Part shown: in pieces, positions 28,894-44,363 of the stretch
How the letters are laid out: each line of letters opens with the position of its first letter
Position numbering within the stretch: position 1 is the stretch's first letter
Source: an uncultured Candidatus Saccharibacteria bacterium
Lineage (GTDB): Bacteria; Patescibacteriota; Minisyncoccia; Phycocordibacterales; UBA9973
Assembly: GCA_964639185.1 (NCBI GenBank)
Contig: CAZXCN010000001.1
Span: 38,626 to 102,625, forward strand
Direction: 5' to 3'
DNA length: 64,000 nt
Translations under genes and position numbers: made by a program
Notes under the pieces: generated by a model
Databases searched by the model: none
Seen by the model: only the letters and a program-made list of their open reading frames with translations
What the model was told of the DNA's origin: nothing

Positions 28894-29790
28894 ATGAATA
28901 ATAATTTTTTACCAAGCAAACAGTTTGCAAAAAGAGCAATAATAATATTTGTTCTTATTGTTGTTGTATTAATACTAACAAAAGTTACTCCTTCCATTAA
29001 AGATAAATTAAATCGGGTAAATACCAATAGACAGCTATCTGTTAGCGAATTAGTAGGGCAGGACAGTAATACAAATGGGATACAAGATTGGGAGGAAATA
29101 TTATGGGGCCTAGACCCAAATGCTGATGGATCAGAAAATAAAAATTTTATAATAAACAAAAAGAAGCAATTAAACGGTGGTGTATTGCCAGCAGAAAATG
29201 ATACTCCGTTGACTGACAACGACAAATTGGCTCGTGAATTCTTTGCTATGATTATATCACTACAACAAAGTGGCAACTTGAACGAAGACGCAATAAAAAA
29301 TATATCAAATTCTGTAGGTGCAAATATTGTTGCTGAAGATCTAAAAGATATTTATACAAAAGATATGCTAGAAATACAAAGCACTACAACTATCACAGTG
29401 GGCAACTATCAAAATGAGATGCGAAAAATAACTCAGAAATATAATAATAGCGATATGGGTAATGAACTATCATTTATCGGCCAAGCCGTAGCAGGGAATG
29501 ACCCTCAGGTATTACGTATAGGTACTTCAATAGCAAACTCATATCGTTCACTGGGCAAAGATATATTAAAAGTGTCTGTACCAACATCATTAGTAACAAC
29601 ACACTTAGAATTGGCAAATAATATGGAGAAAACAGCTCGTTCGATAGAAAATATGCGTACACTACTCGATGACCCAATGGTTGGCATGACAGCAATTGTT
29701 CAGTATAAAAGATACAATGATGCACTGCTCTTAAATTTGGAACAGATTAAAACATTTTTCATTAAAAATGGTATAATAAAATATAATTAA
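28894..29790 (+). CDS. Hypothetical membrane-anchored protein; first gene of the secretion-associated island
   Basis: N-terminal TM anchor (AIIIFVLIVVVLIL). No family. Confidence 0.45.
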   Translation: MNNNFLPSKQFAKRAIIIFVLIVVVLILTKVTPSIKDKLNRVNTNRQLSVSELVGQDSNTNGIQDWEEILWGLDPNADGSENKNFIINKKKQLNGGVLPAENDTPLTDNDKLAREFFAMIISLQQSGNLNEDAIKNISNSVGANIVAEDLKDIYTKDMLEIQSTTTITVGNYQNEMRKITQKYNNSDMGNELSFIGQAVAGNDPQVLRIGTSIANSYRSLGKDILKVSVPTSLVTTHLELANNMEKTARSIENMRTLLDDPMVGMTAIVQYKRYNDALLLNLEQIKTFFIKNGIIKYN

Positions 29791-32760
29791 ATGAGTATAG
29801 ATAGATACAAAAAAATAGTATCTTCAATTACACTAATGGTGTTTGTTTTTTCTACCATTATTGGGCCTACAGCCATAGTCTACGCGGAAGATATTGATAC
29901 TGGAAGTCAGGAGGCTACAACAAACAAAGCAGCTTATACTACGAACAACCCTGCATATACGTTCAATATACAAAATATATCCAATGTTCTACCTGCAGTT
30001 ATAGGGTGTACTGGCATTGTGAATAAAGTAAAGCAATACATGACAAGTGCTTTTGATGGCAATTCCGGAGGTATTTCAAATGATCTTACTTCATCTAAAA
30101 CAGGTACTGGTAATTATAAAGCTGGTTATGATGATGGTAGTGGTAACACAGATATCGATGGATTTAACGCTGGTATAGTAACAGAAAGTGTACCAACTGG
30201 TGATGCCTCTACTCAAAAAAATACACAAAAAAGTGCAGCAGAAGAAGCAAAAATAGCAGAAGAAGAAAAACAAAAGAGAATCAAAGATGAATGTCTAAAT
30301 GGGGTAGCATATGCATTAGCTAAAGCTCAATTGGCATCTATCACAAACAAAACAGTAAATTGGATAAATAGTGGATTCAATGGTGATCCATTATTTATTC
30401 GTGATCGTGAATCATATTTCAAAAGTCTAGGTGACCAAACATTACAAAGCCTACTTGGACCACTTGCAAATATAAATAATCAATCTCTGTATCCATTTGG
30501 ACAAGATTTTGCTCGTTCAGCAATACTATCAGCTAAAACAACATTTTTAGACAGATCAAAATCAACTCTTTCCCAATCATTAAAGCCTGGTGCAACTACA
30601 GAAGATTTTTCCAAAGATTTTAGCCAAGGTGGGTGGGATGGGTGGTTCTCCTTAACACAAAACCCTCAGAATAACCCTCTTGGATTTGGAATCATAGCAT
30701 CACAAGAACTTACTAATAAAATAAATGCAAAACAACAAGAAGCTGAAGCCGACTTGGCTCAAGGTGATGGATTCCTTTCACAAAAGAGGTGTGTGGAATA
30801 TTCAAAATCAGACGAAGGGCTAGATAATACAACAACATCTTCTTCAAAAAATTATAGTATTGTTTCAAATGATACAAATGCAAAACTAACAGGATTCTAC
30901 ATAACTACAAATTCTGTAAATATGGCTATCAAATACCAAGCAGGCGAGCTCGGCACATTGACTGCTTCTATAAAAAATTCTGCAGGTATATCCAAAGGGG
31001 CACAAATAGTTGGTAAAACAAAAAAAGGCAACAATGACCTAGGTACAACTTTCAATAGCTTGTCCGCTTCATCGAAATATGAAGTTAAATTTACATATCT
31101 AGCAGACACAGGTAGTACAGGGGAGAAAACTATTTTAACACTAAATATAACAACCCCTGACAAAGCTACTGGTAATCAGGATACAAATCGTCCAACAAAC
31201 ACATCAACAAATACAAATGCCACCCCTGAATGTATCCGCTGGGAAACAGTAACACCAGGAACAGTTATCGCTGACCAATTAAAGATAAATTTGGGTTCCT
31301 CTGTACGCCAACTTGAACTTGCTGATAGCTTGAATGAATCACTCAGTGCAATATTTGAAGCTCTAGTGAACCAGCTAGTAAATCAAGGTTTATCTAGCCT
31401 AAGTAACATAAAGAATACTTCTACAAATGGATTAGGTGGTGCTGGTAATAATAAAGTTTATGATTCTAGTGGTATTGATATCTCAGGAATATCTGCCGAA
31501 GGAATTCTAGGTAATAAATTATCAGTGAACAAAGGTTCAGGATGGTACAACACAAATGATACATTTGATATAACAAAAGATCTGGGTGATATCTATAAAT
31601 TAGAAAAGGGGAAGAAAGTGTTAGTAAAAAAAGGTATCATAACTATACAATCTGAATACATAACAGCAGTAAAAGCCTCCATGAAAGAAGCTCCACCTAT
31701 TATCCCTGCATTAGGTGAACTTGATTATTGTATTCCGGGGCCAAATCCAAACTGGAAATCAATTGCTGTTCCAAATGTAAATGAAACCATGGCAATTCTA
31801 CGAGACATAGACAAGAATGGTGTTACAACCATTGACACTTCTAACCCAAGAATGGAAGCTATTTACTCTTTTATGAGAGAATACAATCCTGGTTTTAAAT
31901 TAGGGGAAAATATTGGTAATATCTTTACAGCAAAGAGGAAGGCTGGTGAGGCACAACAGCTAAATAGTGCTATAGATGAAAGTTATTATGTTGGTAAATT
32001 ACTATTGAAGTTTAATATACAACTTATTGGTGACCAATATAAATCATACAGAGACAAGATGGACCAATTGTATGGACCAAATTCATCTATGCGTGACCCT
32101 ACTAGTGCGTGGTATTTACCAATGGCTGAAGCAGGTCTAGGATTAACAAAGAACTTGATATCTTACGACCAAAGCATGGGTGGACTCTTGGATGATTACA
32201 CTGACCAAATCAATCAAACAAATGCAAATATTTACAAACTCCAACAAATAAAGAAAAAAGTGGATGCAATAGTGGCAGCTGCTAAAAAAAGACAAGCTGC
32301 AGATATTCGAAGTGGTAAAATACAATTCTGCGCAGAAGAAGCTGGTGGCCCTATAGATACTGGTGTTACAAATGGGGGACTACTTAACAACACTAGCTCA
32401 GGAACAAAACTAAATCCAAATAACAATGGGGCAGTCAGTGGTATTGAACCTATACCAGATTTCAACTTAAGTATTACAGAATCTTTGGAGGATTGTACTG
32501 CAAAAATAATTGCAAAAAATACCTCAATAAATACAGTAGGACCTTATACTTGGAACAGAGTAACAACCGACAAAAACCAATCACAATACAATGCAACTTC
32601 TAAAGATTTTGAGTTTAATGTATCTACCTTTAGCGCATCTGGTCAAGCAAAAGTTACATTAACAATATCTGATACACTTGGTAAACCTATTAGCAAATCA
32701 AAAAACATAACAGTACCAAAAAGAACAAAAACATTATCCGGTCAGGCTTGCCCAATATAA
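29791..32760 (+). CDS. Large secreted protein (989 aa), S/T/N/G-rich, unknown family
   Basis: Signal peptide (KKIVSSITLMVFVFSTIIGPTAIVYA-ED), then low-complexity regions and beta-rich segments. Confidence 0.55.
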   Translation: MSIDRYKKIVSSITLMVFVFSTIIGPTAIVYAEDIDTGSQEATTNKAAYTTNNPAYTFNIQNISNVLPAVIGCTGIVNKVKQYMTSAFDGNSGGISNDLTSSKTGTGNYKAGYDDGSGNTDIDGFNAGIVTESVPTGDASTQKNTQKSAAEEAKIAEEEKQKRIKDECLNGVAYALAKAQLASITNKTVNWINSGFNGDPLFIRDRESYFKSLGDQTLQSLLGPLANINNQSLYPFGQDFARSAILSAKTTFLDRSKSTLSQSLKPGATTEDFSKDFSQGGWDGWFSLTQNPQNNPLGFGIIASQELTNKINAKQQEAEADLAQGDGFLSQKRCVEYSKSDEGLDNTTTSSSKNYSIVSNDTNAKLTGFYITTNSVNMAIKYQAGELGTLTASIKNSAGISKGAQIVGKTKKGNNDLGTTFNSLSASSKYEVKFTYLADTGSTGEKTILTLNITTPDKATGNQDTNRPTNTSTNTNATPECIRWETVTPGTVIADQLKINLGSSVRQLELADSLNESLSAIFEALVNQLVNQGLSSLSNIKNTSTNGLGGAGNNKVYDSSGIDISGISAEGILGNKLSVNKGSGWYNTNDTFDITKDLGDIYKLEKGKKVLVKKGIITIQSEYITAVKASMKEAPPIIPALGELDYCIPGPNPNWKSIAVPNVNETMAILRDIDKNGVTTIDTSNPRMEAIYSFMREYNPGFKLGENIGNIFTAKRKAGEAQQLNSAIDESYYVGKLLLKFNIQLIGDQYKSYRDKMDQLYGPNSSMRDPTSAWYLPMAEAGLGLTKNLISYDQSMGGLLDDYTDQINQTNANIYKLQQIKKKVDAIVAAAKKRQAADIRSGKIQFCAEEAGGPIDTGVTNGGLLNNTSSGTKLNPNNNGAVSGIEPIPDFNLSITESLEDCTAKIIAKNTSINTVGPYTWNRVTTDKNQSQYNATSKDFEFNVSTFSASGQAKVTLTISDTLGKPISKSKNITVPKRTKTLSGQACPI

Positions 32761-32763: not shown

Positions 32764-34110
32764 ATGCAAAACAATCCACACAAAAGCAGAGCATTGATAA
32801 TCACCTTCGTAATAGTACTTGGGCTATTGATAGGTGGATATTTTGTATTTACTAGTGATACATTGTTTGGAGTAGAGAATAGTATTGGTCAAAAATTCTC
32901 ACCATTTCTAACAACACCAAAAGAGAAAAATCTAAATCAGATAGAAGACCCAAACACACTAGACCCAAATGGGGAAATACCCGATACGAATAATACTAGT
33001 ACTGATGATACTCTTGGAACAGACAGTGGATCAGGAGGAACAGGTAATGGATTCTCTGGTAATATTGGGAGCGGGGGAGCAACAGGCGGTATCTACACAT
33101 CACCAACAGGGGGCTCGGTTGCACTTCCAGGAAGCAAAGGGACAGTTATTACATCTAATTTTGTACCTCAATGTAGCGATAAAATAGACAATGATGCAGA
33201 TAAATTAATCGATGCATTAGATCCGGGTTGCCATAGCGACGGAGACGCAAGTAATACAAAGAGTTACAATAAAAACCAATATCTAGAATACAATTTTATA
33301 CCTGCTTGTAATGATGGAATAGACAATGATGCAGATAAATTAATCGATGCACTAGATCCAGTTTGTCATAGTGACAATAATGCAAAAAATCCTGCAACTT
33401 ATACTCCAAATTATACTTCAGAATATGTATCACAAACCAATACAAATAAAGCATCTAGCCAGTGTAATCCAGACGATCTTGCTCTTGTATTTACAGCCGA
33501 GGAACAAGCCGAGCTTGATGAATTGACTCGTCAATTCTATCGCATTGCTCCAACATTAAAGTCAACAAATGATATCCTGATAGAAGACAAGGCTAAACAA
33601 AGCTATATTGACCTAGTAAACAATGCCACAACACTTACAAATGAATGCTATGCGCAAACATATAATGATAAATATTTAGCAAATAGTACCAGCGTTGTAA
33701 CTGAAGGATTTGAAGCACTTAATACCAGATACTCATCGGACACAAAAGAAATCGATGGAACAGCATATGTTATAAAAACTTGGTATCCTTTCTTAAATAA
33801 TCAAAATGGAACACTCATCAGTGGTGGTAAGGAATTCAAAGAATCTTCAAGCTTAAGTATCCCACTATATCCTTATGCAAGCTTGAGTGGTCCAGATGCA
33901 AGTGGCCTAGGGGACAAAGGCAGGACCGAAAGACGAGGTAACCCTTATATAAGTCAAAAACCAGTATCTTCATATTGGCAAATATACGAAACAAAGCAAG
34001 CGACAAGAGACCCTAATGCTAATTATTATGGAAATGTTTACAAAAAAACCATAATTGGAAATAAATACTTCCCTTGGGCTGACTGGGAAAATATGATGGG
34101 TATTTGGTAA
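32764..34110 (+). CDS. Secreted protein with duplicated Cys-flanked D-x-D-x-D calcium-binding-like modules
   Basis: N-terminal TM/signal. Two copies of C.D.IDNDADKLIDALDP.CHSD (dockerin/EF-hand-like acidic loops) with a 33-nt perfect nucleotide repeat. Gly-rich linker. Confidence 0.5.
   Translation: MQNNPHKSRALIITFVIVLGLLIGGYFVFTSDTLFGVENSIGQKFSPFLTTPKEKNLNQIEDPNTLDPNGEIPDTNNTSTDDTLGTDSGSGGTGNGFSGNIGSGGATGGIYTSPTGGSVALPGSKGTVITSNFVPQCSDKIDNDADKLIDALDPGCHSDGDASNTKSYNKNQYLEYNFIPACNDGIDNDADKLIDALDPVCHSDNNAKNPATYTPNYTSEYVSQTNTNKASSQCNPDDLALVFTAEEQAELDELTRQFYRIAPTLKSTNDILIEDKAKQSYIDLVNNATTLTNECYAQTYNDKYLANSTSVVTEGFEALNTRYSSDTKEIDGTAYVIKTWYPFLNNQNGTLISGGKEFKESSSLSIPLYPYASLSGPDASGLGDKGRTERRGNPYISQKPVSSYWQIYETKQATRDPNANYYGNVYKKTIIGNKYFPWADWENMMGIW
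33184..33216. repeat. 33-nt exact direct repeat, copy 1 (ATAGACAATGATGCAGATAAATTAATCGATGCA)
   Basis: Identical 33-mer at 33319-33351, in frame, 135 nt (45 codons) apart. Confidence 0.8.
33319..33351. repeat. 33-nt exact direct repeat, copy 2
   Basis: Identical to 33184-33216. Confidence 0.8.
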
Positions 34111-34182: not shown

Positions 34183-36615
34183 GTGAAGAAATTCTTGCCA
34201 TACATTTTAACACTATTAGTTGTCGTGAACTTATTCGCGCCATTTAGTGTTATATGGAAAGAAAACAATACTCTATCAGTAACAAAGAACGAGGCTAAAG
34301 CATCAGGTATTATAGTATTAGGAGGAGCTGGACAAATCACTTCAACAGACACCACTATATCAGTAACAGTAACTGCGGAATTTCCTACAGATTTTTCAAA
34401 AATAGATAGCGAAGGGGTTTCTGTTTATTTAAAAAAACCCACAGAAAGTGAGGAAGATGCAAAATTAGAAACCTTAACAGATAATTTCAAAGTTGTTGCT
34501 GATAAAAAAAATACCAAATCAGGTACTGTTGTTTTCCAAGACCTAACTCCCAATACACAATACCAAGTATGGTATGCTGTCTTACAAGACGAAGGTAGTG
34601 TTTGGGGCAAGCTAACAAGTGGTTGGAGGTATGGGTATGACAATACAATATCTGCTGAAGTCAGGAATCCATCTCAAAACTATTATGAAGTAACAACAAC
34701 TTCCGGAGGGCAAGCTAACGTTAACACCGAAACATCAGGTAATGCAGAGGGTATGATGCCCGCTTGTGGTGTATCAACTGGTGATGAATTATTAGGCTGT
34801 GTGGCAAAATTATTCTACTATGCAGTATTCACCACTACATCATTCTTATTTGGATTGGCAGGTAAATTCTTTGACTGGACATTTGCCTACTCTATAACAG
34901 ACACATCATACCGAACAGCTTTTGTGAACGAAGGTTGGGCAATAGTACGTGATATATGTAATATATTTTTTATATTTGTATTGTTATATGCTGCTTTCAA
35001 ATCAATATTTGGCTCACACGAAGCTAAATCAATTGTTATAAATGTAATCATTATTGGATTACTGATAAATTTTAGCCTCTTTGCTGCCCGTATCATGATA
35101 GATGCTTCAAATATTCTAGCTAGATTATTCTATACATCACAAGCAGTAGAAATATTGGCATCAGATAGTAGTGGAAATTATTCAAGGGGTGGGGTGGACA
35201 CACTACAAGATTCTGGATTGGGGGAACTTTCTCTTTCTAGTGCTTTGGTAAATAAAATTAACCCACAAAAAATTATTCTAGGGGCAAGAAATATAAATAT
35301 CAAAGATGATGCTTTGGGTGCAAATGGTAATGCCCAAAACAACAAGAATCAACCAATCGGAATTGGGGCATTTTTCCTTATCACCCTTCTAGCTGTAATT
35401 GTAAATGTGGTTGGACTCTTTGTATTCTTATCTGTTGGCCTTATATTTGTGGCCCGAGTTATTGGATTATGGATTGCTATGGTTTTGGCACCATTTGCAT
35501 TCTTTAGTTACACAGTGCCCAAACTTTCAAAAACAAAAATGCTAGGGTGGAGTAATTGGTGGAGCGATACACTAGGGCTATGTTTTGTAGCACCAATATT
35601 TATGTTTTTCCTTTATTTAATATTACTATTCTTGGAAAATGGATTCTCATCTTTGATAGACCCAAATGTTACTGGAGCAAATTTTGTCTTGGTCACAATT
35701 ATCCCATTTGTATTTATAATGATATTACTAATGACTGCTAAAAAGTTGGCAAAAGAGTATTCAGGAACAATAGGCCAAACAATTACCGGTGCAGTTACTG
35801 CAGTAGGGGCGGCGGCGCTTGGCGGGGCAGCGTTAGGCACAGCATGGGCTGGTAGAGGAGTAGGAAAAGGTTTTAATATGGCATCACAACAAGGAACAAG
35901 ACTCAAAGAAATAAAAGAACAAAAAGCTGCAGGAACATATGTAAAACAAAAGGGTGACTGGAAAGCACAAACATTTGGACGTATTGGTAATCCACTAAAC
36001 AGAACTCAAGAAAAAATAAATAAAGTTGACCACGCTAGACATGAGCTTGATACTCTTACTGAAAAAAAGTTTGGTAAGGGTCAAAGGTTTGAAAGACTTT
36101 CTGGTTATCAAAAAAGTTTGATTCAACAAGAACATGCTAAAAAGGAACGTGCTGGTGTCGAAGAAAAATACAGAAGAGAAAATGGTCTTAGTAAAAGTCA
36201 GGCTCTTACCGCAGCACAAAGAAGTGACGTTGATGCTAAACTATCACATGAATTCGATCATTTCGTTGACGAAGCTAAGAAGAAAATTTCAGGGCTTAGT
36301 CGAGCATTTTCACAAGTCAATACTGGAAGTTGGGATGTTAGAAACATGTCAGATGTAAAACAAGACAGAAGAGAAGGTTTGATAACCAAATTCTCATCAA
36401 AATTAATGTCTGGTACTGCTGGGGGAATGCGTATGGGATTAAATAAAAGTGCTGATATAAATTACGGAAAAGGTTTTGCTGATATTTTTAAGGATCTTGG
36501 CCATACAATAACAGAAGCCTTGAAGAGTGCTAAATTTGAAATAAAAGCCGACGCTTCTCACGGAGCTGGAGCTGCTGAAAGTGGACATGATGCTGGACAT
36601 GGAGGAGGGCATTAG
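34183..36615 (+). CDS. Polytopic membrane protein, VirB6/TrbL-like candidate, with N-terminal FN3-like ectodomain and long charged cytoplasmic tail ending in His/Gly-rich segment
   Basis: Signal/TM, then ectodomain with DLTPNTQYQVWYAV (FN3-like). At least six hydrophobic helices. About 270-aa K/E/R-rich tail ending HGAGAAESGHDAGHGGGH. Assignment to VirB6 is by architecture and context only. Confidence 0.45.
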   Translation: MKKFLPYILTLLVVVNLFAPFSVIWKENNTLSVTKNEAKASGIIVLGGAGQITSTDTTISVTVTAEFPTDFSKIDSEGVSVYLKKPTESEEDAKLETLTDNFKVVADKKNTKSGTVVFQDLTPNTQYQVWYAVLQDEGSVWGKLTSGWRYGYDNTISAEVRNPSQNYYEVTTTSGGQANVNTETSGNAEGMMPACGVSTGDELLGCVAKLFYYAVFTTTSFLFGLAGKFFDWTFAYSITDTSYRTAFVNEGWAIVRDICNIFFIFVLLYAAFKSIFGSHEAKSIVINVIIIGLLINFSLFAARIMIDASNILARLFYTSQAVEILASDSSGNYSRGGVDTLQDSGLGELSLSSALVNKINPQKIILGARNINIKDDALGANGNAQNNKNQPIGIGAFFLITLLAVIVNVVGLFVFLSVGLIFVARVIGLWIAMVLAPFAFFSYTVPKLSKTKMLGWSNWWSDTLGLCFVAPIFMFFLYLILLFLENGFSSLIDPNVTGANFVLVTIIPFVFIMILLMTAKKLAKEYSGTIGQTITGAVTAVGAAALGGAALGTAWAGRGVGKGFNMASQQGTRLKEIKEQKAAGTYVKQKGDWKAQTFGRIGNPLNRTQEKINKVDHARHELDTLTEKKFGKGQRFERLSGYQKSLIQQEHAKKERAGVEEKYRRENGLSKSQALTAAQRSDVDAKLSHEFDHFVDEAKKKISGLSRAFSQVNTGSWDVRNMSDVKQDRREGLITKFSSKLMSGTAGGMRMGLNKSADINYGKGFADIFKDLGHTITEALKSAKFEIKADASHGAGAAESGHDAGHGGGH

Positions 36616-36666: not shown

Positions 36667-37578
36667 ATGGATCAACAACAACTACAACAAAAGATCGCTG
36701 AATACGCAAGCAAGCTTCCACCAAATGCCCAAGAGTATTTTATCAAAATGGATTGGATGAATGTACTACAAACTATTGCGACTAAGTACCAGCTAAACGA
36801 ACAACAAGTAGCAAGCCTTGGTACTGAAACAACACTATTATTACTAGGTATAGTGCACCCAGATGAATATACAGGCTTCTTAAAGAAGGAGATAAATATG
36901 GAAGAAGAGGCAAGTGTACAAATGTTTAATGATATTAATACTCAGATAATTGGCAACTTGCGTGGTGACCTAGAGAGTGCCCATATGGCAAACTCGATAG
37001 AACTTGCAGAGAATGAATATGGTGATAATCTGGAAACAGAAATGAATATTCCTGAAGCCCCGAAGCCACCATACGTATCCACACCACCAGCACCAAATTT
37101 ATCTATTCCAAATGCTCCAACTCCATCATACAAGCCTGCTCCGGAAGCAATAGCTACTGTGGCTATACCAGTTGAATCTGAAGCAGACATATCAATAGAA
37201 ACAGCAAATAGCCCTACCAATATAAACCCAGCAAAAGATAGCTCTAATATTTTTTCAAATGCTGGTATAGAGATGGTGTCTATAAATAAATCCGACACTA
37301 CCATCGGAAGCCAGCCAAAGGTAATGCCATTAGTTACAAGGAGTTTCAATACAGCTGACAGGTTCATGGAATCTGGAATTGATATAATTCCCGAGCGTAA
37401 AGCTGACGATGTATTCAAGCCTAATTCTGCTACTGGGGCAGAAACTCTATCTGGTATAAATAATCCAACAATGGGTGTTGTTAATATGCTAGGCGATAAA
37501 CTAAATAAAGCCACAGTAACACCAACAACACAAAGCAACCAAAGCTTGAACAAAGACCCTTACAAAGAACAAATATAA
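36667..37578 (+). CDS. Hypothetical protein with P/S/T/N-rich low-complexity C-terminal half
   Basis: ORF. The minus-strand ORF 36942-37553 overlapping it is judged spurious. Confidence 0.4.
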   Translation: MDQQQLQQKIAEYASKLPPNAQEYFIKMDWMNVLQTIATKYQLNEQQVASLGTETTLLLLGIVHPDEYTGFLKKEINMEEEASVQMFNDINTQIIGNLRGDLESAHMANSIELAENEYGDNLETEMNIPEAPKPPYVSTPPAPNLSIPNAPTPSYKPAPEAIATVAIPVESEADISIETANSPTNINPAKDSSNIFSNAGIEMVSINKSDTTIGSQPKVMPLVTRSFNTADRFMESGIDIIPERKADDVFKPNSATGAETLSGINNPTMGVVNMLGDKLNKATVTPTTQSNQSLNKDPYKEQI

Positions 37579-37579: not shown

Positions 37580-37981
37580 ATGCAATTCAAAGTACCACAA
37601 TTTATCGATGTAGAGGACAAATTATTTGGCCCATTTACTTTTAAACAATTTGCTTATATGGCAGGTGGTGGGGGATTGGTATATATATTGTATAAAGTAT
37701 TACCTATATGGATCGCTATTCCACTAATAATACCTGTGGTAATACTTACAGCATTACTTACTTTTTATAAAATCAATGGCAAATCTTTTCTATACTACCT
37801 ACAAGCAAGCATTACATATGCAACAAAAAGCAAGCTCTATGTATGGAAGCAACGCTTACAGAGGCCAGATACAAAGAAGGATATACCTAATCTACCTACA
37901 CAAACATCAGTAGTTCCAACACTTTCAGGAAGCAAACTCAAGGATTTATCTTGGAGCCTTGATGTACTAGACAAGAAATAG
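37580..37981 (+). CDS. PrgI-like / VirB3-like small membrane protein of type IV secretion systems
   Basis: 133 aa. N-terminal VPQFIDVEDKLFGPFTFKQF followed by two hydrophobic helices resembles PrgI-family (VirB3-analogue) proteins. Sits immediately upstream of VirB4. Confidence 0.5.
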   Translation: MQFKVPQFIDVEDKLFGPFTFKQFAYMAGGGGLVYILYKVLPIWIAIPLIIPVVILTALLTFYKINGKSFLYYLQASITYATKSKLYVWKQRLQRPDTKKDIPNLPTQTSVVPTLSGSKLKDLSWSLDVLDKK

Positions 37982-38024: not shown

Positions 38025-38672
38025 ATGTCGCTTGATGCAAAAAGATCACAAGAATTTGTTCCAATAAAAGAAGTTCGCGATGGTATCATTATATTAAAAG
38101 ATGGTGGTCTTCGTGCGGTTCTTGTTGCTTCATCTATCAATTTATCACTCAAATCCTCAGACGAACAAAGGGCTGTTATCTCTAATTTTCAAAACTTTCT
38201 AAATGGATTGGATTTTTCTATACAAATAGTAGTTCAATCACGCAGGCTTGATATTCGACCATATTTACTAACACTCGAAGAGCGTATGAAGTTACAAGTA
38301 GAGCCACTTATAAAAATCCAAACCAAAGAATATATGGAATTTATTCAGTCATTTACAAATGAAGTAAACATAATGACCAAAAGTTTCTTTGTTGTTGTAC
38401 CATACAGTGGTGGAACATTTAAATCCGACGAGAGCATAGTGGAAAAAGTCTTAGACATGAAAAAAGCAAAGAAAACTAATTCAAAGAAGGAGGCCGACCT
38501 AGCCAGTTTTGAGGAAAAGAGGTCACAATTGGACCAGCGAGTATCCATGATAAGTCAGGGGTTAGGTGGGTTTGGAGTACGTAGTTCACAATTAGGAACC
38601 GAAGAAGTTATCGAGATGTTTTACAAGACATTTAATCCTGGTGATATAAGTCAGGGAATAAAATTAGAATAA
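38025..38672 (+). CDS. VirB4/TrbE/CagE-family ATPase, N-terminal segment (terminated by an in-frame TAA)
   Basis: FVPIKEVRDGIIILKDGGLRAVLVASSINLSLKSSDEQRAVISNFQNFLN matches the conserved N-terminal region of VirB4 proteins. Same reading frame as the downstream ATPase ORF, separated only by TAA-TAT-ATG. Confidence 0.65.
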   Translation: MSLDAKRSQEFVPIKEVRDGIIILKDGGLRAVLVASSINLSLKSSDEQRAVISNFQNFLNGLDFSIQIVVQSRRLDIRPYLLTLEERMKLQVEPLIKIQTKEYMEFIQSFTNEVNIMTKSFFVVVPYSGGTFKSDESIVEKVLDMKKAKKTNSKKEADLASFEEKRSQLDQRVSMISQGLGGFGVRSSQLGTEEVIEMFYKTFNPGDISQGIKLE

Positions 38673-38675: not shown

Positions 38676-40505
38676 ATGAGTATTTTTTCATCAATTTTTG
38701 GTTCAAATAAAGCAACACCACAAGGCAAAATGGTGCTACCTGTGTTACCAAATGAAATATACCAAGCAGCCACATTGGAGCTTCAGGATATAATAGCCCC
38801 TTCAGCATTACAAATCAGCCCAAAATCACTAAATCTCGGAGACAAGATATCCCGCACATTTTTTGTTATATCATACCCACGCTACCTTACCGACAATTGG
38901 TTTTCACCAATTATCAATTTAGATAAAATATTTGATGTTTCTATATTTATTCACCCTATCAATACGGGGGAAATACTACGTTCTTTCCAAAAGAAGGTGG
39001 CTGAAGTGCAAAGTCAGATATCGATACGTGAATCCAAGGGGCTCGTGCGTGACCCAATGCTAGATACTGCATATGGCGACCTCGAGGAACTTCGCAATAA
39101 CTTGATGCAAGCTCAGGAAAAGATGTTCGATGTAGGTTTATATATCACTATATATGCCGACAACGAAAACGAATTATATAAATCCGAAAATGAAATCAAG
39201 TCATTATTGGAATCTAAATTAATATATTTAAAACCTGCATTATTCCAACAAGAAGAAGCTTTCAAAAGCTCTATCCCTACTGGTACTGACCTTTTGGAAA
39301 TAGGGCAGAAGTTGAATACCGAACCACTTTCTAGTGTATTTCCATTTGTATCCTTTGACCTTACTTCAGACAAAGGCATACTATATGGGGTAAATAGGCA
39401 TAATTCCAGCCTTATCATATTTGACCGTTTCTCACTGCCAAACTATAACTCTATTACATTTGCCACATCTGGTGCTGGTAAATCATACGCTACCAAACTA
39501 GAGATCATTCGCACTCTTATGTTTGATACCGAAGTAATTGTCATAGATCCTGAACGTGAATACGAATTCCTGTCTGAAGCAATGGGGGGTAGGTATTTCA
39601 ATATTGCACTTTCATCTGAGCACCACATCAATCCATTTGACCTGCCTATCCCAAGCGAAGACGAAACAGGTGGTGATGTATTGCGATCAAACACCATCAA
39701 CCTTGTTGGATTATTTCGTATCATGCTCGGTGGCCTAACCCCAGAAGAGGATTCCATAATCGATCGTGCTATTACAGAAACATATGCGCTTAAAGACATT
39801 ACCGCGGAAAGTGATTTTCGAAATATTGAACCTCCTTTACTTTCCGATTTTGAAATGGTTCTAGCTGGCATGGAAGGTAGTGATTCAATCATACAACGCC
39901 TTACAAAATACACTCGTGGAAGTTGGGCTTCGTTCCTAAATCAACCTTCAAATGTGGATATAAATAGAAAATTTGTTGTCTTTTCTGTACGTGATATGGA
40001 AGATGAGCTCAAACCAGTAGCTATGTATATAGTTACACATTATATATGGAACGCTATTCGTAAAAATATAAAGAAGCGACTATTGGTGGTAGATGAAGCT
40101 TGGTGGATGATGAAATCCGAGGACACAGCTTCGTTCCTATATTCTATTGCAAAACGTGGGCGTAAATATTACTTAGGGCTTGCTACTATAACCCAAGATG
40201 TGGGAGACTTTATGAAGAGCCCTTATGGTATACCTATTGTTACCAACTCTTCACTTCAACTTCTACTAAAGCAATCACCATCAACAGTAGACCTGCTTCA
40301 AAAAACTTTCAACCTTACCGACGAGGAAAAATACCTTCTTTTAGAAGCAAATGTAGGGGAGGGTATATTCTTTGCAGGACTCAAACACGTAGCTGTTAAA
40401 ACTATTGCTTCTTATACCGAGGACCAGATCATAACATCGGACCCATCACAAATATTGGCTATAAAAAAAGCAAAAGACGAATTAATGAATAATAATACGC
40501 AATAG
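38676..40505 (+). CDS. VirB4/TrbE/CagE-family type IV secretion ATPase (main body)
   Basis: Walker A ATSGAGKS, Walker B LLVVDEAWWM, and the conserved LATITQDV region. 609 aa. Confidence 0.85.
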   Translation: MSIFSSIFGSNKATPQGKMVLPVLPNEIYQAATLELQDIIAPSALQISPKSLNLGDKISRTFFVISYPRYLTDNWFSPIINLDKIFDVSIFIHPINTGEILRSFQKKVAEVQSQISIRESKGLVRDPMLDTAYGDLEELRNNLMQAQEKMFDVGLYITIYADNENELYKSENEIKSLLESKLIYLKPALFQQEEAFKSSIPTGTDLLEIGQKLNTEPLSSVFPFVSFDLTSDKGILYGVNRHNSSLIIFDRFSLPNYNSITFATSGAGKSYATKLEIIRTLMFDTEVIVIDPEREYEFLSEAMGGRYFNIALSSEHHINPFDLPIPSEDETGGDVLRSNTINLVGLFRIMLGGLTPEEDSIIDRAITETYALKDITAESDFRNIEPPLLSDFEMVLAGMEGSDSIIQRLTKYTRGSWASFLNQPSNVDINRKFVVFSVRDMEDELKPVAMYIVTHYIWNAIRKNIKKRLLVVDEAWWMMKSEDTASFLYSIAKRGRKYYLGLATITQDVGDFMKSPYGIPIVTNSSLQLLLKQSPSTVDLLQKTFNLTDEEKYLLLEANVGEGIFFAGLKHVAVKTIASYTEDQIITSDPSQILAIKKAKDELMNNNTQ

Positions 40506-40589
40506 ATATAGGGTGATACTAACAAATCGATTTGTGCTTTTAATTCTTTTCTACTTTCTACTTTTTACTTATTTTAGTATAATATAATA

Positions 40590-41579
40590 GTGAAAAAATG
40601 GTTTATACAAATAACCCTATTAATACTTTTAGTTATTAGTGTATCACCTCTGTATATCAATGCTGAGAGTCTTCAGGTTACATCTGCTGATATAAATATT
40701 GAAACAATACCAGAAAACCCAGCTCCGTATTCTGATGTAACTATCAATATTACGAGCTACGCTACTGACTTGAATAAAGCACTAATAACATGGAAAAGTG
40801 GCAATGATACACTACTTTCTGGAATAGGGCGCACAAAATATGTATTTAAAACTGGGGCTCCTAATATAAATACCGCATTTCAAATTTCTATTACCCCTGC
40901 TGGAACATTTGGGTCTGTTGATAAAAGCTTTATCATACAACCATCTGAAGTAGAGATGCTATGGCAAGCTATCGATTCATATACACCACCTTTCTACAAA
41001 GGTAGAAGTTTCCCATCAACCGAAGGGTATATTCGAGTAGTAGCTATGCCAAACACTGCTGGTGTAGCAAATATAAACAACAAGAACATGGCTTACTATT
41101 GGAAGATAAATTACAATAGTGACCAAGATGCATCGGGGTATGGCAAGGATTCATTTACTTATAAAAATAGCTACCTTAATGATATTGACCATGTTGGGGT
41201 TGCTGTATCCACCACAAATGGATCATACACTGGTACTGGTACAGTAGATATACCGATGTCTAAACCTGAAATAATTTTCTACAAAAAGTCACCTACTGAA
41301 GGGATCAATTATAACGAAGCTATATCTAATACAGTAGATATGACCGAAGATGAGATGACCCTAGTAGCAGAACCTTATTTTCTAAATAATATAATTAACA
41401 CAAATGATTTAGTATATAAATGGCAAATAAACAACAAAGATATCAATACCCCTAGAAACCCTTATGAATTAACAATCCGCCCAGAATCACGTGGGGGATA
41501 TGCTAATATAAATATATCAATAAACAGTATTAGTAAACTTTTCCAGTCGGTTAGTAAATCTATTAAAATAAATTTGTAA
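40590..41579 (+). CDS. Secreted protein with three internal beta-rich modules, unknown family
   Basis: Signal peptide (ITLLILLVISVSPLYINA-ES). Recurrent W[KQ]...N pattern. No family assignment. Confidence 0.45.
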   Translation: MKKWFIQITLLILLVISVSPLYINAESLQVTSADINIETIPENPAPYSDVTINITSYATDLNKALITWKSGNDTLLSGIGRTKYVFKTGAPNINTAFQISITPAGTFGSVDKSFIIQPSEVEMLWQAIDSYTPPFYKGRSFPSTEGYIRVVAMPNTAGVANINNKNMAYYWKINYNSDQDASGYGKDSFTYKNSYLNDIDHVGVAVSTTNGSYTGTGTVDIPMSKPEIIFYKKSPTEGINYNEAISNTVDMTEDEMTLVAEPYFLNNIINTNDLVYKWQINNKDINTPRNPYELTIRPESRGGYANINISINSISKLFQSVSKSIKINL

Positions 41580-41580
41580 T

Positions 41581-43035
41581 ATGAAAAAGGTAACCATATT
41601 AGTATTATCAATATTAACAATGCTTGGTGGAGTATTTATTTCAATGTACCCACAAAAGGCTAGTGCAGCAGCATGTTCTGTATCATCAGCAACTTTTAGC
41701 CCTAGTGGTGATCAAGCAGACAAATGGTATGCCCCTGGTAAAAACAAAGTGTCCATAGAAATAATCACTGAAAATTGCATTGGGCAAACACTTACCGTAA
41801 ATGTAACAGAAGCGGACAGTTGCCCTCTTGTTGATTGCGATGATTATTTACCAGATTCAGGACTTGAAAATTTAAAAATAAAAATTGAACAAATTATTAC
41901 AAATATAGATATAACTGCAGGTGAGGAATCTTGTGAAGCAGGACTGGGGTTTGATTGTGATTTATATCTTCGAGTTAAAAGTGGTGGTTATTCATTGTAT
42001 TCATCTTGGGAAAAGAGTCAGGGTAATTTAAGATATGAATGTAGTGGTGTGTGTTTAGACAATGCAAAATTAGGAAATATTGCATTTAGTGAGGGAACTG
42101 GTCCTGTTAATGAAAATGGTGATCCTGTATCTGTTACACCTACAGGCAACCGAGTATTTGATGAGGATTATAAATTACTAGCACCATTACCTGGGATATC
42201 TAAAATAGACAGTACAACAACTACATTGGGAGATTATCTGAATATAATTTTCAAATTAGCTATTGGTATTTGTGGGGCACTGGCTGTAATTATGATTGTA
42301 ATATACGGAGTACAGTACATGGGGGATGGGTCAGTATTTGGTCATACTGAGGCAAAGAGCAAGATATCAGCTGCTATAATGGGTCTATTACTAGCACTCG
42401 GTGCATATGCAATATTGAATACAATTAATCCCGATCTGGTAGGGGAAAGTGGTATAAACATAAAGCAAGTACAGATAAGTATCTCTCCAGACGATACATC
42501 AACAGGATCATCTACAAATCTTTGTATTTCATCAACAAATCCGCCAAATCCAGATGATGCGAAAGGGACAACAGTAACTTTAAACAAAACCATGCTGGAT
42601 AAATACATACCTGAAATAAACAAAATTACTTCATTAAAAACTGGTCAAAAATTACTAATGACAGCACAAACATTTACTGAAGGTTTTAACGAAACTCCAT
42701 CACCAGGTACTAAATCTTACAGAACAAATAATCCTGGTAATATAGGGAACACAGATGATGGTAAAACTAAATCTTTTCCAACACTTAAAGAAGGCATAAT
42801 AGCACAATCAACCGAAGTGATAAGTGGGAAAGGAAGTTACCAGATCAATGGATCATCCACCTGTGCTCTTGGCAAAGAATTATATGATGGGTCTTTGTAT
42901 CAGTATTTAAGAATATATTCTACTGGAGCAAGACAAAATAATAATTATGTTAATTCTATTATTGGTTATTTTAAAGCAAACGGTAAAACAATTACAGCAA
43001 GAACAAAGATGTCTGAAATATATAACATGAATTAA
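41581..43035 (+). CDS. Secreted Cys-rich protein with an internal VirB2/TrbC-pilin-like two-helix hydrophobic hairpin and a C-terminal globular domain
   Basis: Signal peptide. Cys-rich N-domain. Segment FKLAIGICGALAVIMIVIYGVQYMGDGSVFGHTEAKSKISAAIMGLLLALGAYAILNTI resembles TrbC/VirB2 pilin helices. C-terminal ~200 aa of unknown function. Confidence 0.4.
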   Translation: MKKVTILVLSILTMLGGVFISMYPQKASAAACSVSSATFSPSGDQADKWYAPGKNKVSIEIITENCIGQTLTVNVTEADSCPLVDCDDYLPDSGLENLKIKIEQIITNIDITAGEESCEAGLGFDCDLYLRVKSGGYSLYSSWEKSQGNLRYECSGVCLDNAKLGNIAFSEGTGPVNENGDPVSVTPTGNRVFDEDYKLLAPLPGISKIDSTTTTLGDYLNIIFKLAIGICGALAVIMIVIYGVQYMGDGSVFGHTEAKSKISAAIMGLLLALGAYAILNTINPDLVGESGINIKQVQISISPDDTSTGSSTNLCISSTNPPNPDDAKGTTVTLNKTMLDKYIPEINKITSLKTGQKLLMTAQTFTEGFNETPSPGTKSYRTNNPGNIGNTDDGKTKSFPTLKEGIIAQSTEVISGKGSYQINGSSTCALGKELYDGSLYQYLRIYSTGARQNNNYVNSIIGYFKANGKTITARTKMSEIYNMN

Positions 43036-43040
43036 TTAAC

Positions 43041-44363
43041 ATGAGAAAGACAATAATCATTATTATACTTATACTAATCACCGCTGGTGGGACATTTTGG
43101 TATATACAAAATAAACAAAATACTACTGCAACCAGTAACACTAATACAGACACTGGATTCTTTAAATCATTCTTTTCATTTACACAAAAAAAATCAGACA
43201 CAACAACTGGTACTGGCTCGGACACAACAGACACAACAACTGGTACAGACACCAATGGCGATGGGGTAGTAGATACTTCAGTACAAAATACTCCTAAATT
43301 AAAACAGGTCACAAATTTTGCGATATCAGGTTTTACAACATTTATCGACAAAAGAAAGCTTCCAGAAAGTGCAGTACCTTTTTCTGAAACACCAATATTA
43401 ACAAACACAAAGGAAAAGCAAGTAACCCCGATAATACCTAAAATAGAGGAGGAGTCAGTGTCAGCATTACGCTATGTTGCACGATCAAATGGACATATTT
43501 ATAGTCAGTATTTAGACACAGAAGCAAGTGCTAAAACATCTAACTCAACAATTCCAAGTATTTACGAAACATATTTAGGCAACAATGGTAGTGCTGTAAT
43601 ATACAGATACCTAAGCAATAACAACAAAACAATACAAACATTTCTAACACATACAAATCAAACAAAAGGGGATTTTCTTCAAGAAGATATAACAAGTGTA
43701 TCAATATCACCAGATAGTGTTGGTTTATTCTACCTTGCACCACTCGGTAGTGATATAGCTGGTTATTACATGAACCTTCAGGATAATAATAAAGTACAAA
43801 TATTCACATCTGCATTTACTGAGTGGTTACCACAATGGGCAGGGACTTCTACTATATTCCTGACAACAAAGCCATCATGGGACACCAGAGGTTCATTGTA
43901 CGCAACAAATATAGGTAAAAACAATTTCACAAAAGTATTTGGAGGGATAAAGGGTCTAACCACACTTGCTTCTAATAATGCTACAAATATAATATACAGC
44001 GCAACAACAAATATTGGCCCAGAATTAGGTGTATACAATATAGAAAAGAAAGAATTCACAAAGCTTCCAGTACGAACAATGGCAGATAAATGCGTATGGA
44101 GCAGGGATGGGGTGAGGGTTTATTGTGCAAAGCCAAACAACATTGAAGGCAATAAGTATCCAGATAACTGGTATAAAGGCATAACTTCATTCAATGACAG
44201 TATTGTAGTTATAGATATTACAAACAAATCTTACCTAACTATCATAAATACTGAAGATGTTTCAGCAATAGATGCAATAAATCTAACACTATCAAAAGAT
44301 GAAAAGGTTTTATTATTTATGAATAAAAAAGATTCAACATTGTGGAGATTGGATTTAGAATAA
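43041..44363 (+). CDS. Membrane-anchored protein with T-rich linker and beta-propeller-like (TolB/PD40-like) C-terminal region, unknown function
   Basis: N-terminal TM (IIIIILILITAGGTFWYI), T/G/D-rich linker, repeated [YF]..[ST].DG-type blades. Assignment is weak. Confidence 0.4.
   Translation: MRKTIIIIILILITAGGTFWYIQNKQNTTATSNTNTDTGFFKSFFSFTQKKSDTTTGTGSDTTDTTTGTDTNGDGVVDTSVQNTPKLKQVTNFAISGFTTFIDKRKLPESAVPFSETPILTNTKEKQVTPIIPKIEEESVSALRYVARSNGHIYSQYLDTEASAKTSNSTIPSIYETYLGNNGSAVIYRYLSNNNKTIQTFLTHTNQTKGDFLQEDITSVSISPDSVGLFYLAPLGSDIAGYYMNLQDNNKVQIFTSAFTEWLPQWAGTSTIFLTTKPSWDTRGSLYATNIGKNNFTKVFGGIKGLTTLASNNATNIIYSATTNIGPELGVYNIEKKEFTKLPVRTMADKCVWSRDGVRVYCAKPNNIEGNKYPDNWYKGITSFNDSIVVIDITNKSYLTIINTEDVSAIDAINLTLSKDEKVLLFMNKKDSTLWRLDLE

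Follow-up and report, generated by a model that had tools for sequence, protein, structure and literature searches.

Eleven genes on one strand, between rsmA and jag, separate two sets of housekeeping genes in the stretch of 64,000 nucleotides that we analyzed (hereafter the window). An earlier note had read them as a core resembling a type IV secretion system (T4SS) among large secreted and surface proteins. The locus raises the question of whether this ensemble is a mobile element, an undescribed variant of a secretion apparatus, or a system that is already known, and of what such a machine would do.

Layout of the gene block between rsmA and jag

The ORF list upheld the co-directional, nonhousekeeping block that the earlier note had described (Table 1), although it contains 11 ORFs, all on the + strand, rather than the twelve genes claimed. 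The gene order is pcrA-rsmA-[11 genes]-jag-yidC-rnpA-dnaA-dnaN, with pcrA and rsmA identified by synteny and with rsmA, jag, yidC, rnpA, dnaA, and dnaN as the flanking genes of the island in the window. The comparison with related genomes that had been proposed found the whole block conserved and in synteny across the 80 closest genomes at the species level. The GC content of the island (0.33–0.37) matches that of its flanks in a composition scan, and there are no pseudogenes in the island. Rfam and tRNA scans across the 64-kb window gave no matches. Upstream of pcrA lie three further large unannotated ORFs.

The gaps between island genes are 0 to 84 nt, and the hairpin at 44406, which is probably a bidirectional terminator ending the operon, is the sole + strand terminator-like site from 28894 to 44442. 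g1 to g10 thus apparently form one operon beside oriC, and we infer from synteny that the accessory proteins would be co-transcribed and physically associated. Six of the island proteins are secreted or anchored ectodomain proteins.

Table 1. Positions in the window of the gene block, its genes, and the adjoining features
Feature	Position	Strand	Description	Basis or context
Gene block	28894-44363	+	Co-directional, nonhousekeeping	ORF list; between rsmA and convergent jag/yidC
rsmA	28041-28868			Directly upstream of island
g1	28894..29790	+	298 aa, lineage-specific accessory protein	N-terminal anchor or signal
g2	29791..32760	+	989 aa, secreted S/T/N-rich, Patescibacteria-specific	
g3	32764..34110	+	448 aa, anchored/secreted, two acidic double-disulfide repeats	NF033662
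g4	34183..36615	+	810 aa, candidate "extended VirB6"-type channel subunit	Topology and gene position
g5	36667..37578	+	303 aa, acidic	No TM segment, no signal peptide
g6	37580..37981	+	133 aa, PrgI/VirB3-family small membrane protein	PF12666
g7a	38025..38672	+	215 aa, TrsD/TraC-like	Equals N-terminal domain of one-piece VirB4
g7b	38676..40505	+	609 aa, VirB4 ATPase, MPF_FATA/CD1110 affinity	conju_CD1110
g8	40590..41579	+	329 aa, secreted, three beta-rich Ig-like modules of ~100 aa each	
g9	41581..43035	+	484 aa, chimeric "pilin-lysin"	Hydropathy, AF2, profiles
g10	43041..44363	+	440 aa, N-terminally anchored, Thr-rich linker, TolB/PD40-like beta-propeller	
Hairpin	44406..44442	.	17-bp stem	Between g10 and convergent jag

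The motor core and its relatives

Four T4SS parts had been named in the island; PrgI, VirB4, and the pilin hairpin stand, and the VirB6-type protein is weakly supported. The PrgI/VirB3-like protein (g6) was readily identified, with a score of 40.3 bits against Pfam PF12666 PrgI (cut-off 27) and a weak TcpE match; it was found in 76 of the 80 loci at a median identity of 48%. The VirB4 ATPase was likewise recovered: NCBIfam conju_CD1110 is the best curated model for g7b (372.8 bits, cut-off 325), and P-loop_TraG scores 86.4 bits. The single gene that had been assigned to it at 38025-40505, however, is two ORFs (38025-38672 and 38676-40505), divided by an in-frame TAA at 38670-38672. The upstream ORF, g7a, matches NCBIfam NF041427 TrsD at E 7.8e-8 (score 32 versus a cut-off of 200) and the N-terminal region of VirB4_plasma at E 3.6e-10, and it has a precomputed PF26593 TraC-like match. 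A one-piece clostridial VirB4 aligns over g7a and g7b together. The TrsD-like protein and VirB4 are encoded by separate ORFs in 76/76 relatives examined, with gaps and frames that vary. We rejected an alternative genetic code or read-through across the split because the stop is TAA and because the split is conserved while its gaps and frames are variable. Judged from these loci, the split is ancestral.

Relatives of g7b in species genomes number at least 590. The best 80, at 75 to 90% identity, are all from Patescibacteria MAGs (Paceibacteria, Nomurabacteria, Parcubacteria, or other) and have the same flanking housekeeping genes, while the plasmid relatives (27–36% identity) are from Firmicutes and Actinobacteria. 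The window itself belongs to a Paceibacteria (Parcubacteria/"Nomurabacteria") genome. These best hits, together with a published VirB4 tree that suggests ancient transfer from monoderms (PMC12102498), point to probable membership of the protein in the Patescibacteria clade nested in MPF_FATA.

Most of the ultra-small Patescibacteria (CPR bacteria) have an origin-proximal T4SS cluster, according to papers from 2023 to 2025 (PMC12102498, PMC10633639), and these systems are discussed in PMC12857230, PMC11665869, and PMC10633639. The Patescibacteria-clade T4SS is MPF_FATA-derived, with features reported over 2,417 Patescibacteria genomes by Quinonero-Coronel et al. 2025 (PMC12102498). A VirB4 of apparent MPF_FATA affinity is common to the window and to the described systems (PMC12102498; S. 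epibionticum SEML1_0006-0019, Wang et al. 2023, PMC10633639). Both also have a separate TrsD gene beside virB4, a PrgI/VirB3 protein, and a PF18895 VirB2-like pilin; both are chromosomal, by dnaA/dnaN/rnpA/ksgA/rpmH, with no relaxase or T4CP nearby, and they are alike in vertical inheritance within the class (PMC12102498). We conclude that the island is the origin-proximal T4SS locus type already described for Patescibacteria (PMC12102498) and not the undescribed variant that the earlier note had considered possible. It differs from the Saccharimonadia T4SS, in which small-pilin genes form arrays and virB4 is followed by individual genes for peptidase and lysozyme; in the window, one large protein combines the pilin hairpin with an Ig-like domain and a hydrolase slot. 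Compared with the described Patescibacteria T4SS, the window adds the Paceibacteria-specific g1, g2, g5, g8, and g10, which are unannotated in the literature.

Outside Patescibacteria, locus L081 of the C. perfringens plasmid pSXP-169_2, a CTn2/CD1110-type, conjugative MPF_FATA system of a monoderm, shares the order VirB6-like protein, PrgI, VirB4, cell-wall hydrolase, and anchored protein, and its VirB4 is 27 to 32% identical over the full length. CTn2/CD1110-type systems and the island are both single-membrane systems without VirB7, VirB9, and VirB10. In contrast to the window, pSXP-169_2 encodes MobC, a relaxase, DUF3801, and VirD4 immediately upstream of this set. Its VirB4 comes in one piece (783 aa), a TrbL_2 protein of 264 aa is the VirB6-like component, and the hydrolase is SLT+NlpC/P60 on another N-terminal region. 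The TrsD-TrsE pair of pGO1/pSK41 shares with the window a small TrsD, homologous to the VirB4 N terminus, immediately upstream of the ATPase, but the other trs operon genes of pGO1 (relaxase, T4CP, and TrsG hydrolase) are absent from the window.

In agreement with the earlier note, no relaxase, VirD4/T4CP, or VirB11 was found in the 64-kb window by Pfam searches of ORFs of at least 150 aa outside pcrA and rsmA and by BLAST searches that used clostridial relaxase and VirD4 sequences as queries. There are no mobility genes within ~20 kb on each side of the island, and the sole recombinase in the window, a XerC/D-like gene, lies at a distance of 23 kb. The genome could encode a T4CP or relaxase outside the window; VirD4 homologues are far from virB4 in many genomes (PMC12102498). 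These results bear on the possibility that the island is a domesticated or decaying ICE whose relaxase, coupling protein, and integrase are elsewhere or were recently lost. A CD1110-family VirB4 with PrgI is typical of Firmicutes ICEs and plasmids, and the ancient monoderm transfer suggested by the published tree is in line with such an origin. The conserved flanks in 80 species, a VirB4 that is more conserved than DnaA, the lack of pseudogenes, the apparently ancestral TrsD/VirB4 split, the absence of a compositional anomaly, and the lack of mobility genes over ~20 kb on each side all speak against it. We reject the ICE reading on synteny and composition and consider it extremely improbable. 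The lack of nearby mobility genes, the flank-like GC content, and the gene order kept in 80 genomes favor instead the chromosomal, T4SS-derived, and nonconjugative apparatus that had been proposed.

The candidate channel subunit and the pilin-hairpin protein

The protein that had been read as VirB6/TrbL-like, g4, has the polytopic core, FN3-like ectodomain, and long His/Gly tail ascribed to it, but the family assignment is weakly supported, with no match of this protein to a VirB6/TrbL HMM or a solved VirB6 structure. A signal peptide is followed by the ectodomain at about residues 45 to 135 (weakly FN3-like, with profile and Foldseek matches at E about 0.02) and a core at about 200 to 545 with at least five strong TM segments and further helices that are hydrophobic (AF2 pLDDT 85–92). 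The charged helical tail of ~265 aa ends in a conserved GGGH(H), and G809 and H810 are almost invariant among homologues. The homologues, 518 in number, are all unnamed. No match to a VirB6/TrbL model, such as PF04610, PF19478, or PF19590, was obtained for g4 and five homologues against Pfam and NCBIfam, the family profile found no VirB6 among PDB sequences, and Foldseek of the AF2 model against the PDB returned FN3 matches only. Comparison with a clostridial TrbL_2-like protein gave nothing by hmmsearch and a probability of 0.07% by hhalign, and a tblastn search of 72,556 plasmids with the TM core gave no match. A precomputed PF19590 match is present in 6 of 120 listed homologues and is shown as weak TrbL_3 for the syntenic orthologue. 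g4 sits two genes upstream of PrgI, and TrbL_2 holds the matching place next to PrgI on the clostridial plasmid. In architecture, g4 agrees with the "extended VirB6" type (PMC12857230). Topology, gene position, and the weak TrbL_3 matches in orthologues thus make g4 a candidate for the VirB6-type subunit.

The VirB2/TrbC-like hydrophobic hairpin noted earlier in g9 was borne out. By hydropathy and AF2, g9 has a signal peptide and a two-helix hydrophobic hairpin, as in a VirB2/TrbC pilin. The signal peptide is followed by a Cys-rich Ig-like beta-sandwich (33–170, ~150 aa before the hairpin), the hairpin at about 213 to 282 (AF2 helices 216–248 and 252–282), and a C-terminal helical domain of ~175 aa (~310–484). 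The hairpin of g9 itself scores 23.5 bits against PF18895 T4SS_pilin, just below the cut-off of 26.6. In a position set of 76 proteins, made up of g9 plus the ORFs that carry the hairpin in the syntenic loci, 59 match PF18895 at E ≤ 1e-3 (best E 1e-9), and 4 match TrbC/VirB2 too. Kinship of the g9 hairpin to the N terminus of a clostridial SLT/NlpC hydrolase or to a Maff2-like protein was also considered, and no relation was found; nor were further pilin-hairpin genes found in the window. VirB2/TrbC conjugative pilins are small proteins. g9 resembles them in its signal peptide, two-helix hairpin, and PF18895/PF04956 similarity and differs in its size (484 aa) and in having folded domains both before and after the hairpin.

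The C-terminal domain occupies a slot in which the catalytic module is swapped between species among at least eight families. In the 76-protein set, we found NlpC/P60 (15 proteins), VanY (8), YkuD (5), and Amidase_5 (4) and, more rarely, M15_4 (3), SLT (2), Amidase_2 (1), and 3D (1). The slot domain of g9 is rare, unannotated, and lysin-like; it also occurs in endolysin-like proteins, and in the protein P0377 it is joined to a PG-binding domain of the endolysin type. The domain family has an invariant Glu. The hydrolases in the slot of other proteins of the set, the fusion in P0377, and this Glu give indirect support to a peptidoglycan-cleaving role. The slot domain of g9 gave no matches to Pfam or, as a profile, to PDB sequences, its alignment with E. 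coli FlgJ by hhalign was not significant, and tblastn against cultured phage genomes gave no match; Foldseek of g9 against the PDB was dominated by the beta-sandwich.

Like g9, a putative hydrolase, the VirB1-type peptidoglycan hydrolases of Gram-positive systems (PrgK, CwlT, TcpG, and CD419/Orf14) are membrane-anchored and encoded beside virB4; they have NlpC/P60, SLT, and amidase domains, as do g9 orthologues. Unlike these, g9 is anchored by a two-helix hairpin of VirB2 type and has an additional Ig-like ectodomain, and in the g9 set the catalytic module is interchangeable, with the module of the window absent from Pfam. No description of a pilin-hydrolase fusion was found in the searchable literature. 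One could postulate that the Paceibacteria T4SS "pilin" is a pilin-lysin chimera, in which the hairpin, as an anchor or filament, would show an Ig-like domain and a species-specific, often exchanged peptidoglycan hydrolase. One of these hydrolase domains would be undescribed and GH73-like and would occur in endolysin-like proteins from uncultured phages as well. The T4SS would then be a device for breaching the host wall, with a module that tracks host peptidoglycan chemistry. We regard this full proposal as unlikely.

Surface proteins and the proposed function

The earlier note had described four of the flanking proteins, and its descriptions of g3, g8, and g10 were borne out. The 989-aa S/T/N-rich protein (g2) has an N-terminal hydrophobic segment and an S+T+N content of 28%; its core is conserved, and its extensions vary. 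Its 135 homologues are named just as hypothetical or Patescibacteria proteins, and some have DUF5011, FN3, PKD, or F5/8C Ig-like add-ons. A profile search found no relative in the PDB. g2, which is syntenic in 50 loci, may be an adhesin or a structural component outside the cell. The duplicated acidic loops of g3 are two acidic double-disulfide repeats (NF033662 acid_disulf_rpt, 42.1 bits over two stretches, cut-off 41); g3 is the variable member of the island, detected in just 10 of the 80 syntenic loci. The three modules of g8 are homologous pairwise (hhalign probability 90–96%, E 4e-9 to 1.5e-6), and this protein, with a signal-like N-terminal segment and weak Ig_3/Hoc-type matches, is present in 78 of 80 loci. 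The propeller-like g10 has one N-terminal TM segment as its anchor and a weak TolB/PD40 signal (TolB at E 0.003–0.1); it is present in 67 of 80 loci, and its orthologues carry PD40 in 3/65 and PG_binding_1 in 6/65 cases.

Of the remaining proteins, g1 has one N-terminal hydrophobic segment, followed by a conserved acidic, Ca-binding-like motif (DTDxDGxxDWEE, seen in the family alignment consensus) and a helical region. At residues 50 to 101, its profile has a weak match to Bap, a surface protein (E 0.0016), there was no match in Pfam or NCBIfam, and orthologues keep their position in 38 loci. PDB profile searches with g1, g2, and g8 gave weak or nonspecific matches only. g5 had no family match in Pfam or NCBIfam; it is present in 36 loci at ~38% HSP coverage, with conservation confined to the N-terminal part. 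In the same genomes, the median identity of VirB4 is 80%, compared to 63% for DnaA and 27 to 44% for the ectodomain proteins. Thus, VirB4 is more conserved than DnaA, and the surface proteins are fast-evolving.

The T4SS might comprise g4 to g9 only, with g1 to g3 and perhaps g10 being unrelated surface proteins in an origin-proximal, highly expressed neighborhood. This would account for the sparse distribution of g3, for the weak conservation of g1 and g2 (27–33% identity) without a T4SS family match, and for the large unannotated ORFs beyond pcrA. Yet g1, g2, and g10 hold their position wherever the contig extends far enough, the genes are closely spaced and no terminator-like site interrupts the + strand ahead of 44406, and the PG-binding domains in some g10 orthologues fit an envelope machine. 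We consider this restricted view unlikely.

A second alternative concerns function. The machine could import DNA or nucleotides, in the manner of H. pylori ComB or archaeal Ced, and so feed a bacterium unable to make nucleotides, an idea raised in PMC11665869. The lack of a relaxase and T4CP is a better fit to uptake than to donation, a cell-wall hydrolase and surface proteins would be in keeping with access to a neighbor cell, and there is weak CedB similarity at the ATPase P-loop (31.5 bits over 70 residues). This score is nevertheless far under the CedB cut-off of 700, no CedA-like partner was found, and Pfam and NCBIfam gave no other Ced or ComB family match on the island. ComB systems are, moreover, diderm VirB2-10 sets, and no island protein is predicted from its sequence to bind or process DNA. 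In S. epibionticum, competence needs ComEC/T4P (PMC12857230), while epibiotic growth requires the T4SS, independently of ComEC (PMC10633639, PMC12857230). Import therefore appears quite unlikely.

We conclude that the island is very probably a Patescibacteria-clade chromosomal T4SS in its Paceibacteria form, with transport at the host interface rather than conjugation as its proposed function. In the model we propose, PrgI would tether VirB4/TrsD to the g4 channel, and VirB4/TrsD would power the assembly of, and transport via, a single-membrane envelope-spanning channel. g9, held by its pilin-like hairpin, would present a peptidoglycan hydrolase that opens the bacterium's own wall or that of the host cell, while the fast-evolving proteins of Ig-like, FN3, and propeller type would build or decorate the extracellular part and touch the host. 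The most likely cargo would be proteins or other molecules moving across the epibiont-host interface; relaxase-dependent conjugation is probably not the job of the system.

The window reveals no new system. The locus type matters because it is among the most conserved envelope machines of Patescibacteria, a group that accounts for a large part of bacterial diversity and whose members live attached to other cells, and their T4SS is essential in the one species tested. The window offers a clean Paceibacteria reference layout and contrasts an ultra-conserved motor with fast-evolving surface parts, and its pilin-anchored, exchangeable putative hydrolase, with an unannotated lysin-like domain, provides a lead on whether the machine acts on the host wall.

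Layout, conservation and inheritance of the island

Eleven plus-strand ORFs with intergenic gaps of 0-84 nt lie between rsmA/ksgA and the convergent jag and yidC genes, one fewer than the earlier note had counted. An independent gene call on the identical public contig gave the same ORFs for the eight it covered, g4 to g10. Because rnpA, rpmH, dnaA and dnaN come directly after jag/yidC, we place the island beside the replication origin; its GC content (0.33-0.37) equals that of the flanks. Past the last gene lies the sole terminator-like hairpin on the plus strand, a perfect 17-bp inverted repeat that is flanked on each side by T-runs and reaches slightly into the 3' end of jag; it probably terminates transcription in both directions.

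Features of the island and its surroundings, in window positions
Feature	Position	Strand	Remarks
XerC/D-like tyrosine recombinase	5094-6050	minus	
M23-LysM peptidase	18867-20072	minus	
Three consecutive large ORFs	20300-25661	plus	670, 344 and 763 aa; upstream of pcrA-rsmA
DUF5663 ORF (weak match)	25685-26017		just upstream of pcrA-rsmA
rsmA/ksgA	28041-28868		upstream border of island
g1	28894-29790	plus	anchor; DTDxDGxxDWEE motif
g2	29791-32760	plus	large secreted protein
g3	32764-34110	plus	
g4	34183-36615	plus	VirB6-position protein; C-terminus at 36580-36615
g5	36667-37578	plus	no signal peptide, TM segment or family match
g6	37580-37981	plus	PrgI/VirB3 family
g7a	38025-38672	plus	TrsD/TraC-like; ends in TAA 38670-38672
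g7b	38676-40505	plus	VirB4 ATPase
g8	40590-41579	plus	
g9	41581-43035	plus	pilin-hairpin protein, 484 aa
g9 C-terminal helical domain	42508-43032		residues 310-484; motifs TAQT..EGF, NNPGNIG, YQYLRIYSTGAR
g10	43041-44363	plus	
Inverted repeat	44406-44442		between g10 and jag
jag	44422-44889	minus	convergent, downstream border
yidC	44903-45664	minus	convergent, beyond jag
dnaA	46408-47838		downstream flank
dnaN	48066-49163		downstream flank
PilB-type ATPase	56815-58533	minus	T2SSE/MshEN; type IV pilus assembly
FN3/DUF11-like protein	60000-62594		864 aa; near PilB-type ATPase

At least 590 VirB4 relatives were confirmed among species-representative genomes, and the best 80, all from Patescibacteria MAGs (Paceibacteria, "Nomurabacteria" and Parcubacteria; 75-90% identity), were used for synteny. 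Wherever the contig extends, these loci hold the order pcrA-rsmA-g1-g2-(g3)-g4-g5-PrgI-TrsD-VirB4-g8-g9-g10-jag-yidC-dnaA-dnaN, with g3 (10 of 80 loci) as the sole variable member. That unrelated surface genes share a neighbourhood with a T4SS is a less supported reading of this arrangement. Across the 80 genomes, median identity to the window proteins was 80% for VirB4 (somewhat inflated, the loci having been picked by VirB4 similarity), 61% for TrsD and 48% for PrgI; housekeeping proteins gave 63% (DnaA), 56% (DnaN), 56% (PcrA) and 52% (RsmA), and the secreted or ectodomain proteins of the island 27-44%. A very constrained cytoplasmic motor is clearly set against fast-evolving surface parts, a contrast that fits a machine facing another organism.

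Pfam scans (ORFs of at least 150 aa other than pcrA and rsmA, which were named from orthologues) and BLAST with a clostridial relaxase and VirD4 revealed no relaxase, coupling ATPase or VirB11 in the 64-kb window. The same scans otherwise returned housekeeping genes, an XerC/D-like recombinase 23 kb off, a PilB-type pilus ATPase and an M23-LysM peptidase. The earlier note had likewise seen no VirD4, VirB11, relaxase or integrase, and its reading of a chromosomal T4SS-derived apparatus is upheld by the kept synteny and the absence of conjugation-specific genes; a decayed ICE is less supported. We conclude that the island is a chromosomal system passed on vertically, not an ICE.

The XerC/D-like recombinase and the M23-LysM peptidase are typical chromosomal genes unlinked to the island. 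Besides the T4SS, type IV pili have been reported as an essential envelope machine in Saccharibacteria. The three large ORFs upstream of pcrA-rsmA gave no match in the Pfam scan, and the ORFs of this stretch may encode further Patescibacteria-specific surface proteins adjoining the island.

The motor core and the VirB6-position protein

In Patescibacteria, VirB4 occurs in 2,417 of 3,035 genomes as a clade nested in MPF_FATA. Its commonest partner is TrsD; PrgI/VirB3 and, via PF18895, VirB2-like pilins are also found, VirB6 is seldom detected, and relaxases are almost absent; in Paceibacteria the system lies near dnaA, dnaN, rnpA, ksgA and rpmH (Quinonero-Coronel et al. 2025, PMC12102498). The ensemble of the island is already described, not the undescribed variant once thought possible. 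The T4SS of Saccharibacteria, in which no relaxase or coupling protein can be recognised, is essential for growth as an epibiont (Wang et al. 2023, PMC10633639). Outside the CPR, the nearest systems are conjugative elements of Firmicutes and Actinobacteria (VirB4 identity 27-36%). A C. perfringens plasmid has the same local order (TrbL_2-like, PrgI, VirB4, SLT+NlpC/P60 hydrolase, anchored protein) but, unlike the island, carries MobC, relaxase and VirD4 ahead of it.

A real T4SS locus had been rightly recognised, with errors in its gene models. The PrgI/VirB3 assignment of g6 holds (PF12666, 40.3 bits, cut-off 27). The VirB4 ATPase is also present, although what had been taken for one gene is two ORFs split by an in-frame TAA. 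The 215-aa g7a matches VirB4 models over their N-terminal region, g7b is a 609-aa ATPase of the monoderm CD1110 VirB4 family (372.8 bits, curated cut-off 325), and a one-piece clostridial VirB4 spans both in alignment (residues 35-754, E 2e-83). The two ORFs share a frame, with only TAA TAT before the ATG (38670-38678), and resemble one interrupted gene. Since trsD and virB4 are separate in 76 of 76 related loci, with gaps of -83 to +497 nt and differing relative frames, the split is ancestral; this also rules out a pseudogene or read-through. Two related genomes carry an extra small ORF between trsD and virB4 (L046:2975-3419 and L062:9504-10000), whose translation looks by eye like a four-helix bundle of the '23S rRNA intervening-sequence protein' family.

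As described earlier, g4 is polytopic, with an FN3-like ectodomain (weak, E about 0.02-0.1) and a long charged tail, here put at ~265 aa. The analysis adds a signal peptide, at least five strong TM segments and a helical core that AF2 predicts well. Its family link to VirB6/TrbL is unproven: no VirB6/TrbL model, solved structure or plasmid gene was matched by g4 or by the profile of its family, and the sole link at sequence level is a precomputed, weak match to TrbL_3 (PF19590) in 6 of 120 homologues among the matches listed, including an orthologue in a syntenic locus. Given its position and its "extended VirB6" type of architecture (PMC12857230), VirB6 is our best guess for g4. The terminal Gly/His motif (…HDAGHGGGH) is conserved across homologues, with G809 and H810 nearly invariant, and may serve to bind metal or as a tag for docking.

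The pilin-hairpin protein g9

The VirB2/TrbC-like hairpin proposed for g9 is borne out. Residues 213-281 match PF18895 (T4SS_pilin) at 23.5 bits, just under the cut-off of 26.6, and among the 76 proteins at this position (g9 plus 75 hairpin ORFs of syntenic loci) 59 match PF18895 (best E 1e-9) and four also match TrbC/VirB2. In the AF2 model (pLDDT 83), the signal peptide is followed by a beta-sandwich (33-170), the two helices of the hairpin (216-282) and, at the C-terminus, a compact helical domain (pLDDT above 90). The hairpin region alone is constant among homologues; the segment after it is swapped for VanY, NlpC/P60, YkuD, M23, M15_4, SLT or Amidase_2. Domain counts for the 76 proteins (g8-g10 slot) were NlpC/P60 (15), VanY (8), YkuD (5), Amidase_5 (4), M15_4 (3), SLT (2), Amidase_2 (1) and 3D (1). 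Four loci (L016, L050, L060 and L065) have two pilin-hairpin/hydrolase genes at or near this position.

The window's own C-terminal domain is common to only 3 of 80 species. It has an invariant Glu in the EGF motif and an NNPGN motif, and Pfam and PDB sequence searches gave no match. Its family is small (202 representative clusters among 1.84 billion proteins), and most members outside the locus have neither hairpin nor signal peptide; the domain is also C-terminal in signal-less proteins of 200-2,500 aa. Some members are of endolysin-like build. In one homologue, P0377, named peptidoglycan hydrolase-like protein by JGI, the domain stands behind an endolysin-type peptidoglycan-binding domain, the first 60 residues matching that of 710 phage endolysin records. 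A tblastn search of 50,697 deposited phage genomes did not find the domain. The catalytic module of g9 is probably a diverged lysin domain without annotation, and probably one of uncultured phages or CPR bacteria. From sequence and predicted structure, we conclude that g9 would join a VirB2-like anchor with a VirB1-like hydrolase function. Searchable literature yielded no mention of such a pilin-lysin fusion.

Accessory proteins and a proposed mechanism

Three of the flanking proteins bear out their first descriptions. The three modules of g8 (~100 aa each) are mutually homologous (hhalign probability 90-96%) with weak Ig-like matches; g10 is anchored, with a weak TolB/PD40 propeller signal and an added peptidoglycan-binding domain in 6 of 65 orthologues; and the duplicated acidic loops of g3 are two acidic double-disulfide repeats. 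g2 is found in Patescibacteria only, and its relatives carry varied Ig-like add-ons.

The analysis establishes which parts the island has, in what order they stand, how well they are conserved, and that genes specific to conjugation are absent. In the mechanism we propose, VirB4/TrsD, docked via PrgI onto a g4 channel, would power single-membrane transport, g9 would cleave peptidoglycan locally, and the Ig-like, FN3 and propeller proteins would form or decorate an extracellular part and touch the host. Reviews call the role of these systems unknown and propose that they deliver effectors or take up DNA or molecules of the host (PMC11665869, PMC12857230). For the island, a DNA import machine is less supported, and protein or other host-interface cargo would be a likelier substrate than relaxase-processed DNA. 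The putative pilin-lysin fusion is the one lead from this locus that is worth following.
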